Origin: Patescibacteria group bacterium
GTDB lineage: Bacteria; Patescibacteriota; Patescibacteriia; Patescibacteriales; UBA12465
Assembly (NCBI GenBank): GCA_049317985.1
Contig: JBMOHF010000003.1
Span: forward strand, 22,350 to 86,349
DNA: 64,000 nt
Direction: 5' to 3'
Part shown: piece after piece, positions 3,699 to 59,360 of the stretch
Layout: every line of letters starts with the position of its first letter
Position numbering within the stretch: position 1 is the first letter of the stretch
Position numbers and translations under genes: made by a program
The notes under the pieces: model-generated
Told to the model about the DNA's origin: nothing
The model's database searches: none
The model's input: only the letters and a program-made list of their open reading frames with translations

Positions 3699-5396
3699 TT
3701 ACATCTTCTCTAAAGTTTCAATCCCTAAAATATTTAAAGATTTTCCTAAAACAATCGTGAAGGCCTCAACCAACTTCAAGCGGAGGTTTGTGTTGCTAGA
3801 ATTAGCGACCGGGCAAGAATGATAAAACTCATTAAAAATTTGCGCTAACTCAAAAGCATAGTGCGCTACTAAAGATGGATTACGATTTTCTCCGGCAAAA
3901 ATAAGTAGTTCCGGAAAGCCAGCAATTTTTTGAATCAGGGCGAACTCGGCATCTTCTAAATTGGCTGTGTCACGAAAATCACCTTCAGTTTCTGATACTT
4001 TTACCAGAATGGAATTGGCACGGGCAAATGAATAGAGAAGATATGGGCCAGTGTCGCCATCGAAACTCAAAGATTCTTTTGGATCAAAAACCATGTCTTT
4101 AAAAACATTAGTCTTGAGTAATTTATATTTAATTGCCGCGAGAGCAATTTTCAGGGCACGAGTGGCGGCTTCGGCTGGATCAATGTCGCTGGTTCTTTCA
4201 ATAATTCCCTCTTTTGCTAAATCAGTTAATTCCCAAATTAAATTATCAGCATCAACAACCGTTCCTTCGCGTGACTTCATCCGCCCTTCGGGTAAAGAAA
4301 TCATCCCGTAAGAAAGATGACTAATTTTTTTGGCAAAACCCATCTTCTTCAAAATAATCGCCAAAACCTTAAAATGATAATCTTGTTCGTTGCCGACGAT
4401 ATAAATTGAATCATCATAGTTATAATCAGCGTCCTTTAAAAAAGCCAGATATAAATCCTGAGTCATATAGACACTGGTACCGTCGGCGCGCAGTAGAACT
4501 TTTTCGTCCAAACCATCGGCGGTCAGGTCAAGAATGATCGCCCCATCTTCACGTTTAGAAAAAACTCCGTCGGACAAATTTTTTAAAACCAAGTCCTTTC
4601 CCTGCTGATAGATTTCGCTTTCAAAATAATTTTTATCATGTTTGATTCCAACAAGCTCAAAAGTTTCCTTAAAACCCTCGAAGGCCCAATTATTCATTTT
4701 CTGCCAAAGGTTTCTGGTTTCCGGATCGCCATTTTCCCATTTCAATAGTAGCTCCTGAGTTTCCTTCTCGAGATTCTCGTCATTTTTGGCGAGGGAGGAA
4801 AATTTTACATAGTAATCACCAACAAAATGATCGGACTTTTTGTCCGGCTCAGCATTCTTGCCTTCTTTTTGATAGGCAATCATCGATTTGCAAATATGAA
4901 TACCGCGATCATTAAAAAGATTAGTGCGAACTACTTTTTCCCCGTTCGCTTCCAAAAGACGGGCTAATGATTCGCCGATTGATAAGTTGCGGAGATGACC
5001 AAGGTGCAAGGGTTTATTGGTGTTTGGCGATGGATATTCAATGACAATTGTTTTGCTGTTCGTTGGTGCATTACCAAATTTTTCACATTTGTCTAAAACA
5101 TCATCCAAAACAGAAATCGCAAAAGACGCACGATCCAGAAAGAGATTGAGGTAAGGACCAACCGCTTCAGCGTTCTGGATAATATTATGACCAGACATTA
5201 AATTCGCAAGCTTTTCGGCAATCACGGCCGGAGGAAGAGCAAGATCTTTGGATAAGACAAAACAAGGGAAAGCAAAATCACCCAAGTCTCTCGTTGGCGG
5301 AACTTCGATTTTTACTAGCAGATCAGAGGCTGAGACCGTCTGACCACTCAATTCTTTCACTTTTTCAGCCAATAACTTGGCGATTTTGCTTTTCAT
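3699..5396 (-). CDS. argS: Arginine--tRNA ligase
   Basis: 565 aa. HIGH-type PLHLGHLRN, KMSKS-type MKSREG, typical C-terminal DALR-like anticodon-binding region. Confidence 0.95.
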   Translation of the reverse strand: MKSKIAKLLAEKVKELSGQTVSASDLLVKIEVPPTRDLGDFAFPCFVLSKDLALPPAVIAEKLANLMSGHNIIQNAEAVGPYLNLFLDRASFAISVLDDVLDKCEKFGNAPTNSKTIVIEYPSPNTNKPLHLGHLRNLSIGESLARLLEANGEKVVRTNLFNDRGIHICKSMIAYQKEGKNAEPDKKSDHFVGDYYVKFSSLAKNDENLEKETQELLLKWENGDPETRNLWQKMNNWAFEGFKETFELVGIKHDKNYFESEIYQQGKDLVLKNLSDGVFSKREDGAIILDLTADGLDEKVLLRADGTSVYMTQDLYLAFLKDADYNYDDSIYIVGNEQDYHFKVLAIILKKMGFAKKISHLSYGMISLPEGRMKSREGTVVDADNLIWELTDLAKEGIIERTSDIDPAEAATRALKIALAAIKYKLLKTNVFKDMVFDPKESLSFDGDTGPYLLYSFARANSILVKVSETEGDFRDTANLEDAEFALIQKIAGFPELLIFAGENRNPSLVAHYAFELAQIFNEFYHSCPVANSSNTNLRLKLVEAFTIVLGKSLNILGIETLEKM

Positions 5397-6101: not shown

Positions 6102-7847
6102 ATGAAAGAAGAAGCTAACATCGAAATGAAGCGTCACAGCTTGTCTCATATTATGGCGGGGGCAATCAAAGAACTTTGGCCAGATGCCAAACTCGCAATT
6201 GGCCCAGCTATTGAGAATGGTTTTTATTATGATATCGATTTCGGTGATGTTAAAATCACAGAAGCTGATTTAAAAATCATTGAGAAAAAAATGGCTTTTT
6301 TAATCAAACAAAATCTCAAATTTGAGAAAGAAGAGAAAGATGTTGACCAAGCATTAGCCGAAGAAACTAAATCTGGTGAAATCTACAAGGCCGAATTAAT
6401 TGCCGGTATTAAAGAAAACGGCGAAAAAACTGTTAGTTTTTACACCGTTGGAAAATTTACCGATCTTTGTCGTGGACCACACCTGGAAAATACTAACCAA
6501 CTGCAACCTGGTTCCTATAAATTAAACAAATTGGCCGGTGCCTATTGGCGCGGTGATGAAAATAATAAAATGCTAACCCGCATCTACGGATTGGCTTTTA
6601 ACACCAAAGAAGAACTAACTGCTTATGACCAAATGATGTCGGAGGCAGAAAAAAGGGATCATCGAAAACTGGGAAAAGAATTGGATCTTTTCATGACTCA
6701 TGAATATGCCCCTGGGATGCCTTTCTTCTTGCCAAAGGGGATGATTATTCTTCAGGAACTAACAAAATTTGTGCGGTCTGAGTCATACGGTGATGGTTAT
6801 CAAGAAGTTCGTACTCCACAATTATTTAATGATGAACTCTGGAAAACATCTGGGCATTGGGGTCACTACCAGGAAGATATGTTCTGTCTTCACCATGCGG
6901 ATGACGACACTGATATGGCAATTAAACCGATGAATTGCCCAGCGCACATGTTGATTTTTAAGCGGGATATTCATTCATACAAAGAATTACCCCTTCGCAT
7001 TGCGGAAACTACAACTTTGCACCGCAACGAAAAATCTGGTACCCTCCATGGCCTCACCCGCGTTCGTAGCCTTTCTCAGGACGATTCCCATATTTTTGCT
7101 CGCCCCGAACAAATTCTTCAGGAAATTTCTATTCTTTTGGAAAAGACTAAAAGAATTTACCAAGTTTTTGGTTTGGCGATTGATGAGATTCATCTTTCCA
7201 CTCGCCCAGAAAAATTTCTTGGCGAACGGGCGGTCTGGGATGACGCAGAAGCAAGCTTGAAACAAGCCCTGGAGGATGCGGGCTTAAAATACCAAATCAA
7301 TGAGGGAGATGGTGCTTTCTATGGACCAAAAATCGATGTCAAAGTTAAAGATGCGATTGGACGACAATGGCAATTAGCAACGATCCAATTGGATTATCAA
7401 TTGCCAATTCGTTTTGATTTGAACTATATCGACAATGACGGTCAAGAGAAACGCCCCGTGGTTTTGCACCGTGCCCTTCTTGGATCGATGGAAAGGTTTA
7501 TGGGGATTATTATTGAACACTACACCGGAGCCTTCCCGGTCTGGCTCGCCCCGATGCAAGTAAAAATTGTTTCCGTGGCCGAAGCTCATGTCGCACACTG
7601 CAAAAAGTTAGCCAAAGAGTTAAGGGCGGCAGGTATTCGTGTGGAAATCGATGAAGCGAATGAAACGGTTGGTAATAAAATCCGGAAGGCTGCTAATGAA
7701 AAAGTTCCCTATATGCTAGTAATTGGCGATAAAGAAATGGAATCTGAAAAACTGACCGTCAGAGACCGCGGAAGCAAAGACACCCGCGAGATTAATAAAG
7801 AAGAATTCTTTACAGAGATTAAAGAGAAGATTGAGAATTATTTGTAA
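6102..7847 (+). CDS. thrS: Threonine--tRNA ligase (lacks N-terminal TGS domain)
   Basis: 581 aa. Begins at editing-domain motif HSLSHIMAGAIKELWPDAKLAIGPAIENGFYYD. Class II core and C-terminal anticodon-binding domain present. Confidence 0.95.
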   Translation: MKEEANIEMKRHSLSHIMAGAIKELWPDAKLAIGPAIENGFYYDIDFGDVKITEADLKIIEKKMAFLIKQNLKFEKEEKDVDQALAEETKSGEIYKAELIAGIKENGEKTVSFYTVGKFTDLCRGPHLENTNQLQPGSYKLNKLAGAYWRGDENNKMLTRIYGLAFNTKEELTAYDQMMSEAEKRDHRKLGKELDLFMTHEYAPGMPFFLPKGMIILQELTKFVRSESYGDGYQEVRTPQLFNDELWKTSGHWGHYQEDMFCLHHADDDTDMAIKPMNCPAHMLIFKRDIHSYKELPLRIAETTTLHRNEKSGTLHGLTRVRSLSQDDSHIFARPEQILQEISILLEKTKRIYQVFGLAIDEIHLSTRPEKFLGERAVWDDAEASLKQALEDAGLKYQINEGDGAFYGPKIDVKVKDAIGRQWQLATIQLDYQLPIRFDLNYIDNDGQEKRPVVLHRALLGSMERFMGIIIEHYTGAFPVWLAPMQVKIVSVAEAHVAHCKKLAKELRAAGIRVEIDEANETVGNKIRKAANEKVPYMLVIGDKEMESEKLTVRDRGSKDTREINKEEFFTEIKEKIENYL

Positions 7848-8639: not shown

Positions 8640-11600
8640 TTAATCGGTCGTGAAATAACTGTCAGGAACATTGTCTGGAAATGTTTTCCAGAGACCCCAA
8701 TTATCAGTTACTTTGATCTTTATTTCCCTTTTTGTTGCTCCCGCTCCGGCGCTATAGCTGTAATTATGAGATATTGCGTGTGGTGCATTTGCGGCTGGAT
8801 GGTTATCTTGAGTATTAATTACTGATACTTGATCATCACCCCAGTTGATAATAATATTACCAAGCGGCTGTTGTTCTTTATCCACAATACTATTGAATTT
8901 GAGAGTGTAATACCCAGGAGCAATAGTCCATTCGCCGATAGTTGGGTTGGAGGCAGTTAAAGCCGCTCCAGTGCCGTTTCCTCTAAAAAGGCTGACATTG
9001 CTTATTTTTGGCATAATTGCACAAAAATCCGAGTCAGAAAAGTTGCTTACACCAAAATCGCTATTGGCATTTGGACGAGAATTCTGATTGCTACATAATT
9101 TTAACTGGTAAACGCCCTCAAATAAATCGGTACTCGTTGAATGAGAGTCATAAGCTATTCTTTTAATGGGATTATCGGGTATATAATTGCCACCATTTAG
9201 AAGAAAACCTTTGGTTGCGTCTAAAAATATATTCTTCAAAGTATTTTTTTGGTTACTACCAGTTTTGGACTCATCCTCATTCTTAAAGCCATATGAAACG
9301 CAGGGACCATCTACGCCGCTTCCAGCACAAGTAGCGGTTGTCCCGCCGCTGTTTCCGGACATAACGCAATTAATTTCCGGCTTATTTTTACAATATCCAA
9401 TAAATTGACAGGAATTTGTACTTTTAGTAACACCACCAACAATAACGTTATCAGAACAACCATATGGACGTCCAGCGAGGGGGCTTTTTTCTCCACTATT
9501 TGAATTGTTGTTGAACATCGTGCCGAATTTAATAGCAGCTTTGCCAGCAACTGATACAGTGTTAAATAATGATGCTGCGCCATATGGAGCAGTTATACCA
9601 CTAACAACTTGACCAAAACTACTAGAAGCTAGATTGAAATAAGGAACAGTGGAATAACCAAATTCGCTGATGATTGGGAAAAAGTTTGGTGAAGTGGAGG
9701 TTGGATAAACGCCTTCACTAAAGATTCTTTCCATCCATGGTTTACCAATGCCGTTACTATCAACGACCTCCACAAACTTGTTACAAGTCGGGGTAAAAAT
9801 ATCTTCAGGATCAATACCTGCCCCACTATTTATATACCATAATCCAGCGGTAGGATTATTATAATCATAGACGCGAACGGCGCTTTCATTACCAGCTAAC
9901 CCATCGTACTTATACCAACCAGCAGAATAAACGTCGACTCCTGATGTAATTCCATAATCACCATGGCTTTGAGAGCCCCATCTTGGACCTTGATAAAAAC
10001 CACCATCAACTGGCACTATTTTTACGTTTGACACAGCTCCGTTCCCCGTAAATTCCAACCTCGCGGTGGTGTTTGCATTTATTACATATCTGGTCCCCCC
10101 CCAACTTGGCTGAAATCTCATACCATGACTCCCAGCATTAATAACCACGGCAACTTTCATGTTTCCTGTATCAGGCACACAAAGAGAAAAAGTTTCACAG
10201 TGGTCCATTTCAGTATTTTCATCATCATCAAAACTATATTGATAAAAGAATTGATTGTAATTTGGGAGACAATCACCTTGCCCAGCAAAACCAGTTGGGA
10301 TATAGTCATCACTATCTCCCTGACATCCTATATCCCCCGTCGTGTCAGTCTGTTGGCGATAAGGACCACCATTACCTGTGATTCTATTCTCCACCAAATC
10401 AAACTGCGCGTTCGCTTCGGCACAATAATATAAAGGATACGTTCCACCCCTGCCAGCATAACTGGTTTTTTTAGTATTTAAGCTTGATGAAAGAATGTTG
10501 TCTAATGGTAACCATTGTAAACAAACACCCGGGTTAAGCGGATCGTGTTGCAAACAATAACCTTCCCAGCCATTTTTTACAACGCTCTGATCACGGCTCG
10601 AACAGGTCAAGCTATTGCTATCCTCTGTTGGATATAAGCGACATTCCTTTGCCAAATAATTACCTTCATCGCCGGAATGGTTATTAATTTCCAAAACTGG
10701 TTCAATTTTAATGTCATCGTAATAAACTGTACCACCAAAATCATCGCCTAATGCTTGGGACGTCCCAAAAACAATAGCGACCTTATTTTTCTGAACATTA
10801 ATTTTATGAACAACGCGTTGCCAGCCTTTTGTGGTATCTTTAAATACCTGCAAAGGAGTTCCGAGATAAGATTTGTCATCTACTATCTTCACCATCGCTT
10901 GTGGGCCAGACAATCCATCGGTATTAACTAAATAACTTATGTAATAGTTTATTCCTGGTATTAAATTTACTCCCGATTTCCCCAGCATTTTACCAGATTT
11001 AATACCAACAAAAACTTTTCCTTCGGCCGGATAAGACATACTTGGTAAAACTGATGAAGGTTCGTCAGCCAACGTGTAGTCTTGAGGTCCGACATTAGCC
11101 GTGGAAGTTGCTACGCCGCCTGAGGAAAATATCTTTAAATCGAAAGAAACGTCGTTGTCCTCAAAATTAATCGCCTTAAAATCACTAGTCGCCCCAACCT
11201 CTTTCATGTTGGCGATATTGTAGGCATTCAACAAGCTATAACCCGTCGCATTTTTATCCTGTGCGTAATTGAAAACATGAGTCGAAGTAGCACTACCGAC
11301 AAAGTTGCCGCAACCACCACCTTCGGTCAATTTATCGCATTCATTCAAACCATAGCAAGTTTCCGTGCCAGTTTTTTCATCCATCACAGCTGTAGTGCAA
11401 GAAAGCCAGCGACTACAAACTCGATTCGGCGAAACTTTCACCACCATATTGGCATTGCAGCTATTGCCAGAACAACTCGTGGCCAAGCCAGACCCAGTGG
11501 TGCTCGCAAAAGCATTATAACTCAAAGACGAAACTTGTCCCTGAATACCATTATAGGCGCGATTATTAAACAGGACACAACCATTATCAAAATCTACTTT

Positions 11601-57319: not shown

Positions 57320-57392
57320 GGGCCCTTAGCTCATCTGGTAGAGCACCTGCTTTGCAAGCAGGGGGTGGCAGGTTCGAGTCCTGTAGGGTCCA
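57320..57392 (+). tRNA. tRNA-Ala (anticodon UGC), no encoded CCA
   Basis: Full cloverleaf folded by hand. Acceptor GGGCCCT/AGGGTCC with G3:U70. D-stem GCTC/GAGC. Anticodon arm CCTGC-TTTGCAA-GCAGG. T-arm GCAGG-TTCGAGT-CCTGT. 73 nt. Confidence 0.93.
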
Positions 57393-57396
57393 CAAG

Positions 57397-57426
57397 AAAA
57401 AAATCTAGCAACAGCTAGATTTTTTT
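57397..57426 (+). terminator. Intrinsic terminator after tRNA-Ala
   Basis: atctagc-aaca-gctagat hairpin followed by tttttt. Confidence 0.75.
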
Positions 57427-57440
57427 CTTGTGCAAAAATC

Positions 57441-57551
57441 ACAGGACGAGAAAGCCGGAGCCGCATTTATGCGGCGAGGCCGGACTAGGGTGCTTGTTTT
57501 TCGCCGAGTGTAACGAAGGTGAAAAACTTAGCAACCGGAACCGAGTCCTGT
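57441..57551 (+). ncRNA. Unclassified GC-rich structured RNA candidate (three-way junction)
   Basis: Closing helix acaggac/gtcctgt (57441..57447 with 57545..57551). Arm 1: ccgg..gccgca-ttta-tgcggc..ccgg (57455..57483). Arm 2: 9-bp tttttcgcc/ggtgaaaaa extended by gcttg/cttagc (57491..57533). Sits in an otherwise AT-rich spacer. Confidence 0.5.
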
Positions 57552-57615
57552 ATTTATTAAATATTTATTAGCTGATTGCTTAAACTTTATCGACGTCATG
57601 AAATAATAACCCTAT

Positions 57616-57683
57616 GGGCCAGGTATGGCTACGAACCAGAATTTAACAATCAGGTCTTCGGAGTTCGATTCTCCGCTGGTCCA
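57616..57683 (+). ncRNA. 68-nt tRNA-like element (non-canonical; not assignable to an amino acid)
   Basis: Acceptor GGGCCAG/CTGGTCC with G3:U70 and discriminator A. Perfect T-arm CGGAG-TTCGATT-CTCCG. The D region (TGG-CTACGAA-CCA) and central hairpin CCAGA-ATTTAACAA-TCAGG (A-A mismatch, 9-nt loop) do not fit a cloverleaf. Confidence 0.5.
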
Positions 57684-57773
57684 CTTGGTTGAATTTTTTC
57701 AATCAACATGATATTATTAAATAGTTAAATTCTGGTACAATATACGTATCCATGCGAGACAATCACATATTTC

Positions 57774-57805
57774 AAAAACCTCCCTTTTCGGGAGGTTTTT
57801 GTTTT
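57774..57805 (+). terminator. Intrinsic terminator
   Basis: cctccc-ttttc-gggagg hairpin followed by tttttgtttt. Confidence 0.8.
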
Positions 57806-57883
57806 ATTCAAGTTTATAACTTATAATAGCAATACACTAACAGCGCCGTTTGGCGCCTATTCAAAAAATCTAATCATCTTTTT

Positions 57884-58108
57884 ATGTCCCAAGAAGAAAA
57901 ACACGAAGCAGCTTGCTGTTCCAAAAAAAAGCATCATGGCAGTAACAATAATTTATGTGGTGGCGTCTACTTTTTTGCTTTCATCGGCGCAGCTGTCTAT
58001 TTCATTCAGCACTCAAGCGGCTTTTGGCTTGGTGTACTGGCAGTACTCAAAGCTCTTGTTTGGCCAGCAATACTGATTCATAAAATTTTCACGATGATAG
58101 GTATGTAA
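57884..58108 (+). CDS. Small membrane protein with Cys/His-rich N-terminus
   Basis: 74 aa. HEAACCSKKKHHGSNNNLCGG followed by two hydrophobic helices. Confidence 0.5.
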   Translation: MSQEEKHEAACCSKKKHHGSNNNLCGGVYFFAFIGAAVYFIQHSSGFWLGVLAVLKALVWPAILIHKIFTMIGM

Positions 58109-58126
58109 AAGTTTGCCGCGGAATAT

Positions 58127-58154
58127 CAAAAACAGATTCGGTGAGTCTGTTTTT
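58127..58154 (+). terminator. Intrinsic terminator
   Basis: acagatt / gagtctgt hairpin followed by a T-run. Confidence 0.65.
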
Positions 58155-58200
58155 ATTTACCTGGCCATAGTATAATACAAGTAACTAATTCATTAAAAAT

Positions 58201-58380
58201 ATGGAAAATATAATAGAAAAAATCCGCCGAGGAAAAATTTTACCCACTTTTAAAGTTGACATTCGTACGGCATCCCAGAAAAAAACTATCCTTAAACAAG
58301 CGTTTAAACTGCAAAAGGAAAACGAATTACTGGCAGAAGTTAATTGGCCAGAATTAAACCGCTTCGTTATTCTCATTTAA
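58201..58380 (+). CDS. Small basic hypothetical protein (59 aa; below the ORF-track cutoff)
   Basis: Hand translation MENIIEKIRRGKILPTFKVDIRTASQKKTILKQAFKLQKENELLAEVNWPELNRFVILI*. TATAAT-like box upstream and a plus-strand terminator downstream. The antisense 63-aa ORF in the track looks spurious. Confidence 0.45.
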   Translation: MENIIEKIRRGKILPTFKVDIRTASQKKTILKQAFKLQKENELLAEVNWPELNRFVILI

Positions 58381-58395
58381 ACTCACTTCCTCTCT

Positions 58396-58418
58396 AAATA
58401 GGCCCTGGCCTATTTTTT
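58396..58418 (+). terminator. Intrinsic terminator
   Basis: ataggc(c) / (g)gcctat hairpin followed by tttttt. Confidence 0.65.
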
Positions 58419-58494
58419 ATTTTAGAATTCGTCTCCCATATCTAATAAACGCCCTAAGTGATAAAATAGAGATGAGAAATAACTACTAAAATAT

Positions 58495-59145
58495 ATGAAA
58501 AAGAAAAAATCAAATTTTAAAATTATCATTGTTGTTATTTTGCTTATTGGCCTCTCCGCTATTGTCGGCGAATATGTTTGGCAAAAAAATCAAGCAACTG
58601 ATTACGAAAAAAATATTCTCACTCAAAAAACAAATAACCTTTCTTCTTCAACAACATCGAGCATAACAGATACCACCACGCAAGAAAATGGACCACTATT
58701 ATACGAAATAAACGCGAAACAGGTATCCGCTACCCGAGAAATTGATGGGATATTTGACTATACTGCTGCAGAACTAAAATCAAGAGCCGATGATTGCGGG
58801 ACAAAATACCCCGAAGCTTATTTTGAAAATCTGGTTTCTCAATTTAGTGGCGCACCAAAAATTTATTATATCTTTAGCTATGAAGGCTCTAACCCTGCAA
58901 ATAGCGACGGAAGTGTTTATTCGGTGACTCTTTTACCAAACAAAGCTGGTTATACTTCTCAAGATCAATTTAAAAAAGATTTTAACCTCTGCTCTTCTGG
59001 CGGTGTCGATAATCCATTAATAATGAACAACAACTGGCTTCTTTTTGTTAGTTCCTGTGGCAGTGGTTTCAATGACGGTTCAGGAAGAATTAATGGCTGC
59101 GATGAAGCCAGAAAGATTATTGAGCCGAGTTTGGGATTGAAATAG
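58495..59145 (+). CDS. Membrane-anchored extracytoplasmic protein of unknown function
   Basis: 216 aa. N-terminal TM helix FKIIIVVILLIGLSAIVGEYVW. Ser/Thr-rich linker, then a globular domain with 4 Cys. Confidence 0.65.
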   Translation: MKKKKSNFKIIIVVILLIGLSAIVGEYVWQKNQATDYEKNILTQKTNNLSSSTTSSITDTTTQENGPLLYEINAKQVSATREIDGIFDYTAAELKSRADDCGTKYPEAYFENLVSQFSGAPKIYYIFSYEGSNPANSDGSVYSVTLLPNKAGYTSQDQFKKDFNLCSSGGVDNPLIMNNNWLLFVSSCGSGFNDGSGRINGCDEARKIIEPSLGLK

Positions 59146-59153
59146 GCTAAATC

Positions 59154-59182
59154 TTGACAAAATAAAAATACTATGGTATAAT
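59154..59182 (+). promoter_or_regulatory. Perfect consensus sigma70 promoter (TTGACA-17 nt-TATAAT) driving the downstream small RNA
   Basis: TTGACA 59154..59159, 17-nt spacer, TATAAT 59177..59182. No ORF follows before the terminator at 59293..59320. Confidence 0.75.
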
Positions 59183-59196
59183 TCTAATATACAAAC

Positions 59197-59289
59197 GCCA
59201 GGGAATTAGCCATTGTTCCTAACAAAATAATGGAAGCAAACGGGCGGTAAACTAATAACTCCGCAGAGGTTCGAATCCTCTCCTTGGTG
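59197..59289 (+). ncRNA. 93-nt tRNA-like small RNA of unknown class
   Basis: Four-helix layout. Acceptor-like GCCAGGG/CCTTGGT. 8-bp stem CCATTGTT/AATAATGG with loop CCTAACAA. GCGG/CCGC stem with 13-nt loop. Perfect T-arm AGAGG-TTCGAAT-CCTCT. Bounded by a consensus promoter and a terminator. Confidence 0.6.
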
Positions 59290-59292
59290 CAA

Positions 59293-59320
59293 AGCGATAT
59301 ATAATTTATATCGCTTTTTT
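59293..59320 (+). terminator. Intrinsic terminator of the small RNA
   Basis: agcgatata-taatt-tatatcgct hairpin followed by tttttt. Confidence 0.8.
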
Positions 59321-59345
59321 CTTTTTCTTCACTTATCCTATTTTA

Positions 59346-59354
59346 TGCTACAAT
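59346..59354 (+). promoter_or_regulatory. Extended -10 (TGcTACAAT) 6 nt upstream of polA ATG
   Basis: tgctacaat-tgaaat-ATG with no SD, so the polA mRNA is probably leaderless. Confidence 0.4.
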
Positions 59355-59360
59355 TGAAAT

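Follow-up and report, generated by a model that had tools for sequence, protein, structure and literature searches.

A candidate tRNA-derived, D-arm-less tRNA mimic encoded as possible island cargo in a Falkowbacteria-like Patescibacterium

A short gene in the genome of a Falkowbacteria-like Patescibacterium raises the question of what an RNA might be that carries the acceptor stem and T-arm of a tRNA, stands under a consensus promoter of its own and yet is not called as a tRNA. The gene lies close to polA, at positions 59146-59321 of the window, by which we mean the whole stretch of 64,000 nucleotides analysed here (NCBI assembly GCA_049317985.1, contig JBMOHF010000003.1, positions 22,350 to 86,349 of the forward strand), and its RNA body spans 93 nt (59197-59289). 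The reading that we prefer, with a probability of roughly 0.5, is that of a stand-alone gene for a tRNA-derived tRNA mimic without a D-arm (a pseudo-tRNA), which would have been acquired as cargo of an island. A tRNA-derived accessory RNA appears most likely, rather than a new conserved family.

Gene layout and fold of the RNA

The promoter of the gene consists of TTGACA and TATAAT separated by a 17-nt spacer, with an extended -10 TG, and reaches a sigma-70 score of 12/12. The claim of an initial annotation of this DNA that it is the best promoter in the window holds, as it is the sole 12/12 match in the 64 kb; 0.05 perfect TTGACA-N16-18-TATAAT arrangements are expected in a stretch of this length, and such a match was present in 5 of 100 shuffles. 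The annotation was also right that the promoter drives no open reading frame (ORF): no credible ORF was found in the cassette on either strand, and an antisense or small ORF was rejected as a candidate, the reverse frame being open over 52 codons yet without a credible start codon. From the usual 7-nt spacing, the transcription start is predicted at about A59189. The annotated terminator is present with its T-run, but the tool counts 11 pairs in its stem-loop (59291-59317) instead of the nine given initially. The parts of the gene are the following.

59146..59321, + strand: 176-nt cassette of the window lineage, made up of spacer, promoter, RNA gene and terminator and nothing else; absent from all relatives examined
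59154..59182, + strand: sigma-70-type promoter (-35 box 59154-59159, TG 59174-59175, -10 box TATAAT 59177-59182)
59189..59196, + strand: putative 5' leader of ~8 nt, deduced from where the promoter lies and where the acceptor stem begins; removal by RNase P is predicted
59197..59203, + strand: acceptor stem, 5' strand GCCAGGG, pairing with 59282-59288, with wobbles G1.U72 and G5.U68
59204..59209, + strand: 6-nt linker AAUUAG where a D-arm is expected; its AUUAG is complementary to CUAAU (59252-59256) in the loop of helix 3
59210..59233, + strand: helix 2, an anticodon-like arm with 8-bp stem CCAUUGUU/AAUAAUGG and 8-nt loop CCUAACAA (59218-59225)
59234..59243, + strand: 10-nt junction AAGCAAACGG
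59244..59264, + strand: helix 3, a variable-arm-like hairpin adjoining the T-stem, GCGG/CCGC with 13-nt loop UAAACUAAUAACU
59265..59281, + strand: canonical T-arm AGAGG-UUCGAAU-CCUCU
59282..59289, + strand: acceptor stem, 3' strand CCUUGGU, and discriminator G59289; no CCA is encoded, and CAAAG comes next
59291..59322, + strand: intrinsic terminator, 11-bp hairpin AAAGCGATATA/TATATCGCTTT followed by the T-run

This layout is that of the real tRNA-Ala gene found 1.9 kb upstream (57320-57393), which has its own promoter-like site, no encoded CCA (its discriminator A is followed by CAAG) and a hairpin with T-run directly 3'. A tRNA-Ala gene without an encoded CCA implies that maturation by RNase Z and the CCA-adding enzyme takes place in this organism.

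The four-helix junction drawn by hand in the initial annotation coincides with both the minimum-energy and the centroid structure of the RNA body in ViennaRNA (-27.7 kcal/mol), and the predicted primary transcript of 134 nt preserves it, with the terminator folding apart as a hairpin of its own. Pair probabilities are ~1.0 for the acceptor (0.93-1.0), ~0.78 for helix 2, ~0.96 for helix 3 and ~1.0 for four of the five pairs of the T-stem. For U85 there are two partners, A69 in a 7/5 layout (p = 0.39) or A8 in an 8/4 layout (p = 0.55). Redrawing helix 2 as a 3-bp stem with the 7-nt loop UUCCUAA costs 8.3 kcal/mol, and the anticodon-like loop offers no register with U33, a triplet and purine 37 on a stable stem.

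The module formed by acceptor and T-arm is clearly non-random. A structural scan for a TTCRANN loop with five closing pairs, followed directly by a strand pairing 7/7 with an upstream segment, was run over 787 kb (the window and the loci gathered for comparison); it returned real tRNAs, the RNA described here, a second tRNA-like element of the window at 57616-57683 (hereafter the 57616 element) and one AT-rich false positive. All stems of the RNA are intact, which argues against random decay.

Likeness to class II tRNAs and to irregular tRNA-like genes

R1, a covariance model built from the single sequence 59197-59289 with its four helices, finds nothing but ordinary tRNAs, none of them above 24 bits, and its best matches are class II tRNAs, namely a phage tRNA-Tyr (23.8 bits) and tRNA-Leu genes (21.7-22 bits). 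The 22-mer GAGGTTCGAATCCTCTCCTTGG, which covers the T-arm and the acceptor 3' strand, has one exact match in IMG/VR, a phage tRNA-Tyr, and one in 185,579 GTDB species genomes, a Coxiellaceae tRNA-Leu(CAG). The junction CCGC-AGAGGTTCGAATCCTC, leading from the 3' strand of helix 3 into the T-stem, is identical in five class II tRNAs of phages, which carry G73 along with a GCU (serine) anticodon. Judging by these sequences, the 3' two-thirds of the RNA is of class II tRNA design, combining a canonical T-arm, the variable-arm hairpin set directly against its stem, an acceptor and a serine-like G discriminator. The 5' third departs from a tRNA, with its 6-nt linker, its anticodon-like arm of 8 bp and 8 nt, and ten unpaired nucleotides before the variable arm. 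Set against class II tRNAs (Ser, Leu and Tyr, bacterial and phage), the RNA shares the 7-bp acceptor, the 5-bp T-stem with UUCGAAU loop, the stem-loop immediately 5' of the T-stem, the G73 of serine tRNAs, the gene layout without encoded CCA and exact identities of 20-22 nt; it differs in having no D-arm and no G18G19, an anticodon-like stem of 8 bp and not 5, an 8-nt loop, a 10-nt junction before the variable arm, a 13-nt variable-arm loop and no Rfam tRNA match.

The initial annotation had been unable to fit the RNA to class I or class II tRNA folds or to tmRNA, and the dedicated tools agree. ARAGORN, run with eight option sets (standard, intron, relaxed -ps/-ps80, tmRNA and metazoan-mitochondrial), made no tRNA call for 59197-59289; intron mode at -ps80 produced implausible calls only, which span the promoter. 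In standard mode the program finds one tRNA in the window, the tRNA-Ala, which is also the only match of Rfam 15 at gathering thresholds over the whole window. Rfam was further run in E-value mode on 2.5 kb and then on 141 nt, and no family came near its threshold: the general tRNA model RF00005 (threshold 29 bits) gave no match at gathering or at E <= 10, even in the 141-nt search, and the best tRNA-clan match was tRNA-Sec RF01852, with 14.7 bits against a threshold of 47 and E = 1.4 (141 nt). In the tRNA-Sec alignment, helix 3 takes the place of the variable arm; the acceptor and the T-arm are aligned too, and the region between is left out. Other matches on the RNA at permissive E-values were sub-threshold noise. 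As for tmRNA, it was rejected since ARAGORN (-m -ps) found none, no tmRNA-clan family matched and 93 nt is too short. Among the hallmarks of a tRNA, the RNA has the 7-bp acceptor on a 5-bp T-stem with GTTCRANYC loop and the discriminator base; it lacks the D-arm (3-4 bp, with a G18G19 loop) and an anticodon stem of 5 bp whose 7-nt loop has U33 and purine 37. Of the traits of tRNA-Sec and allo-tRNAs, the variable-arm-like hairpin and G73 are present and the 8/4 and 7/5 layouts are nearly equally probable, while no D-arm occupies the place of the 5-6-bp D-stem with tetraloop of allo-tRNAs (PMC5389517).

A number of irregular tRNA-like genes offer a comparison. With tRNA-Sec and the allo-tRNAs of 8/4 and 9/3 layout (PMC5389517), the RNA appears to have in common the long variable arm, and it shares G73, a longer anticodon stem, a possible 8/4 drawing and a place near mobile or variable DNA, some of those tRNAs being thought unused in translation; it differs in its score (14.7 bits against 47), in the lack of a long-stem tetraloop D-arm and of UCA or a clean anticodon, and in that no family members were found. 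More generally, irregular tRNAs with long variable arms occur near toxin-antitoxin and transposable elements, and some are chargeable and unused in translation (PMC5389517). In the case of Bacillus cereus, tRNA-Other is an island-flanking pseudo-tRNA with no action in translation (PMC3399842), and the two genes are alike in being tRNA-like, in lying at an island edge, in fitting no normal isoacceptor and in the non-translational role proposed for them. There is no sequence relationship between them, and tRNA-Other is a full cloverleaf within longer transcripts, whereas the RNA is tightly bracketed by its own promoter and terminator (PMC3399842). The D-arm-less tRNAs of mitochondria (type III, mt-tRNA-Ser(AGY)) also have a short connector in place of the D-arm, which contacts the variable and T-loops, and a comparable pairing of the linker with the loop of helix 3 is possible in the RNA; those tRNAs are, however, organellar and short, without a long variable arm and with degenerate T-loops (PMC7609411), and ARAGORN in mitochondrial mode calls the 57616 element but not the RNA. 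The RNA is best filed as a new structural variant among the known island-associated irregular tRNA-like genes.

In the mechanism that we propose, the consensus promoter would drive a primary transcript of ~134 nt ending at the intrinsic terminator. A minihelix of acceptor and T-arm suffices for RNase P, RNase Z and the CCA-adding enzyme, and the 7-bp acceptor on its canonical T-arm would be recognised as such by the three enzymes, so that the leader of ~8 nt and the terminator trailer would be removed and CCA added after G59289, leaving a mature CCA-tailed RNA of ~96 nt. The acceptor, T-arm, variable arm and G73, all of class II type, could allow binding, and perhaps charging, by a tRNA-binding protein such as seryl-tRNA synthetase (SerRS); charging is conceivable because SerRS reads the long variable arm and G73 and not the anticodon (PMC5389517). 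Owing to its abnormal decoding half (no D-arm or G18G19, an 8-bp stem and an 8-nt loop without U33, triplet and R37), the RNA is most likely no regular decoder. More probably it acts as a tRNA look-alike, with a role such as that of ligand, decoy or regulator, in the manner of other irregular tRNA-like genes beside mobile DNA, and by analogy the precedents of tRNA-Other (PMC3399842) and of the irregular long-variable-arm tRNAs (PMC5389517) would fit a look-alike serving another role.

Island setting and rival explanations

By its PolA homologs, the organism falls among Candidatus Falkowbacteria / Patescibacteria. The interval between tRNA-Ala and polA (57394-59360) is hypervariable, with at least four unrelated cargos among relatives whose PolA is 83-91% identical (L091, L093, L096 and L102 compared; L numbers are our handles for loci and contigs). 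The window itself carries small ORFs, which match no family and give no functional clue, a secreted-looking protein of 216 amino acids and several RNA-like elements. In GCA_026396875.1 (PolA 87% identical), the interval holds a ThiF-like gene and genes for proteins of 296 and 745 amino acids; in a relative from the window's 90%-identity PolA cluster, a Hydrolase_2, DUF4325 and MerR/HTH_17 set; and in a widely sampled lineage (PolA 83% identical), an HD protein, an ORF of 103 codons and a 227-amino-acid homolog of the 216-amino-acid protein. The cassette sits at the polA end of this island downstream of tRNA-Ala. In BLAST comparisons, the left-hand match with relatives extends as far as 59144, where the 216-amino-acid ORF ends (L001, L002, L093, L094), and homology resumes at 59322 (L090, L096, L097), 59337 (L091, L092) or 59342 (L001, L002, L093, L094). 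In every relative that carries a homolog of this ORF (L001, L002, L093, L102-L111), the homolog ends 24-30 nt before polA, and none of the relatives examined, among them those with 83-91% identical PolA, has the cassette. Other explanations of the insert were rejected: a mobile repeat or miniature inverted-repeat transposable element (no second copy of any part of the cassette in the window), an attachment-site repeat of tRNA-Ala or the 57616 element (no likeness at the 3' ends), and a leader or attenuator of polA (relatives lacking the cassette still conserve the polA promoter region, which lies 3' of the terminator).

The initial annotation had seen in the RNA a member of an undescribed family, and no second member came to light. 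The only other copy of the cassette is identical and lies on the Logan contig L052, possibly from the same population. Synteny searches over 50 metagenome polA loci, closer relatives reached through the protein database and ten contigs of the lineage with the 227-amino-acid neighbour revealed no cassette, and BLAST of the cassette against phage records matched the promoter only. Pattern scans of IMG/VR gave only ordinary class II tRNAs or random matches, exact motifs being needed, so that diverged copies could escape; scans of GTDB genomes, limited to near-exact motifs that diverged homologs could likewise escape, gave no second member. A translated-frame scan, in which the DNA of the RNA was compared in three frames as degenerate patterns with IMG/VR and GTDB and near-identity over ~48 nt was required, gave no confirmed match. 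Two IMG/VR candidates (L058 and L067) were discarded, as CCTAACAA lies within stems and not in an apical loop. The outcome is that there is no close copy in the collections scanned, which is not proof of uniqueness.

Paralogy with the 57616 element (57616-57683, + strand) had also been suggested, and the comparison lends it no support: the element scores 12.2 bits against R1, below the 18-24 bits of ordinary tRNAs. The UUAACAA noted at the outset is indeed in its anticodon-like loop, and the UAACAA common to the loops of both elements is the sole specific link between them, with a chance of ~1% by a rough estimate. The 57616 element is itself a non-canonical tRNA-like structure, whose 7-bp acceptor and perfect T-arm (CGGAG-TTCGATT-CTCCG) are accompanied by an anticodon-like stem that contains mismatches and bears the loop UUUAACA; a proper D-arm is missing. 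Standard ARAGORN overlooks it, and the mitochondrial mode reports a D-loop-less tRNA-Leu(taa) of 69 nt. Among Rfam families, mascRNA/menRNA comes closest (25.1 bits, below threshold), and the element is skipped in alignments of the window with the relatives L091 and L096.

Several observations weigh against a tRNA-derived mimic. The folding z-score is modest (-2.6, with 1 of 200 shuffles folding equally well), and neither the GC content of the body (46% against 38% in the window, with 13% of 93-nt windows equally high) nor the possible AUUAG:CUAAU pseudoknot, which occurs in 8% of composition-preserving shuffles, is significant. With just 4 bp below a loop of 13 nt, the variable-arm-like hairpin differs from the variable arms of the serine tRNAs encountered here, and a canonical T-loop normally docks on the G18G19 of the D-loop, which are absent from the RNA. 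R1 found no second member over roughly 95 loci (~0.8 Mb), and no homolog came to light whose covariation would argue for selection on the fold. No toxin, transferase, extra synthetase, nuclease or defence gene was detected in the island.

Part of this evidence would suit a non-functional relic, a class II tRNA gene scrambled by island recombination and left behind an accidentally strong promoter, which we regard as unlikely, if a serious alternative. The cassette is strain-specific and lies exactly at a recombination junction, between a left flank like that of L001 and a right flank like that of L096; no homolog appeared in the scans, other tRNA debris is found in the island (the degenerate 57616 element and, in relatives, a second copy of the tRNA-Ala 3' end), and island integration can inactivate tRNA genes (PMC3399842). 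Decay should, however, break pairs, as it does in allo-tRNA pseudogenes (PMC5389517), and here the four stems are intact, including an 8-bp hairpin foreign to any parent tRNA, the T-arm is perfect, and a promoter that is unique in the 64 kb is matched by a clean terminator directly after the RNA. At the other extreme, the gene might encode a working aberrant decoder, either a D-arm-less tRNA of Leu(UAA) type or charged with serine, or one whose loop CC-UAAC-AA reads a four-base codon. We consider this improbable, although the acceptor-T minihelix, the discriminator and the tRNA-style gene layout are complete, the loop contains UAA and can be read as 2+4+2 nt with A at position 37, and the 57616 element resembles a tRNA-Leu(taa) to ARAGORN in its mitochondrial mode. 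The RNA attracts no tRNA-model match at E <= 10 and no ARAGORN call in any mode, a C occupies the universal U33 position in both the UAA and the UAAC readings, the 8-bp stem lengthens the anticodon arm, and the gene is dispensable, judging from close relatives without the cassette. Its G73 also conflicts with A73, which is the leucine identity base in the E. coli tRNA identity rules. We know of no D-arm-less tRNA that functions in a bacterium. Such tRNAs are functional in mitochondria, for which alone they have been described (PMC7609411).

A decoy or antidote that titrates an enzyme directed at tRNAs (an anticodon nuclease or a tRNA-modifying toxin, for example) in a phage-host or toxin-antitoxin conflict would agree with the hypervariable island, a setting typical of conflict genes where relatives carry ThiF-like, HD and MerR/Xis-like cargos, as well as with the strong constitutive expression predicted from the promoter, the two tRNA-like elements sharing the loop motif UAACAA in one island and the irregular tRNAs reported beside toxin-antitoxin systems (PMC5389517). 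The loop is nevertheless unlike a standard anticodon loop, and this version of the island shows no detectable toxin, nuclease or defence gene, so that we hold the decoy to be doubtful. We find it hard to favour a trans-acting base-pairing small RNA, in which the loops CCUAACAA and UAAACUAAUAACU would pair with mRNAs and the tRNA-like fold would serve only for stability. An own promoter and terminator and long single-stranded loops are typical of such RNAs, and tRNA-Other has been proposed to be a tRNA-like module within a regulatory RNA (PMC3399842); on the other hand, an RNA with a canonical T-arm and acceptor would lose its flanks to RNase P and RNase Z, and the complementary targets envisaged in the initial annotation did not emerge, since the loop complement TTGTTAGG is not enriched (2 matches in the window against 2.2 expected, one of them being the RNA itself) and a scan for it in the window yielded no target candidates.

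The tRNA-derived mimic is thus the reading that we retain. If expressed, it would be a natural example of the conversion of a tRNA gene into a tRNA mimic within mobile islands and a compact scaffold for studying which tRNA enzymes need just an acceptor-T minihelix and a variable arm. A bolder proposal, and a very improbable one, is that the RNA, and perhaps the 57616 element with it, works as a tRNA without a D-arm in a free-living lineage of bacteria. Its acceptor, variable arm and G73 would then serve for charging, with SerRS as the most plausible enzyme, and the charged RNA would go to the ribosome or to a tRNA-dependent transferase, its loop CC-UAAC-AA reading UUA or a four-base codon. If true, it would be the first D-arm-less tRNA from outside organelles, and Patescibacteria would possess a mobile recoding device. 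The presence of two tRNA-like elements in one Patescibacteria island hints at a process that recurs locally or at a role that both share. As a single orphan locus, the gene is of value as a lead rather than as a result.

Other RNA-like elements and repeats

Just after the tRNA-Ala terminator lies a structured element of ~110 nt (57441-57551, + strand) that is 77-88% conserved in two relatives (L091, about 5076-5200; L096, about 6640-6765), with four predicted pairs that keep pairing through double changes; its best Rfam match is a 20.6-bit partial one, and none is of note. In the relatives, the element ends with an exact duplicate of the tRNA-Ala 3' end, CGAGTCCTGTAGGGTCCA, of which the window retains only CGAGTCCTGTA. 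The whole resembles a small RNA-like insert within an integration-site repeat. The 5' start of the element, CAGGACGAGAAAGCCGGAG, is resembled by CCCCGGACTCAAAAGCCGAG, found just upstream of polA in three relatives (L090, 1840-1886; L096, about 9915-9961; L097, about 470-516), which may be a repeated recombination site bracketing the island cargo.

A further unit without ORF follows the 57616 element (57689-57808, + strand). It comprises a promoter, TTGAAT-17-TATTAT with TG (57689-57717), ~80 nt and a strong 12-bp terminator (57773-57801), and could encode a small RNA. Its terminator portion has a conserved counterpart in L091 (5297-5333), and Rfam gives sub-threshold leader-like matches only.

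As for canonical tRNA genes, the tRNA-Ala is the only one in the 64-kb window, and genes for tRNA-Ile and tRNA-Met lie just beyond its end (L052, 8745-8951). In viral sequences, CCTAACAA followed 30-60 nt later by GGTTCGAATCC was found in 37 IMG/VR contigs (L053-L089), where roughly 13 are expected by a rough estimate. In most of the 37, CCTAACAA stands just upstream of an ordinary phage tRNA gene and not inside it, which may reflect a recurrent spacer or processing motif in tRNA arrays, or an effect of composition.

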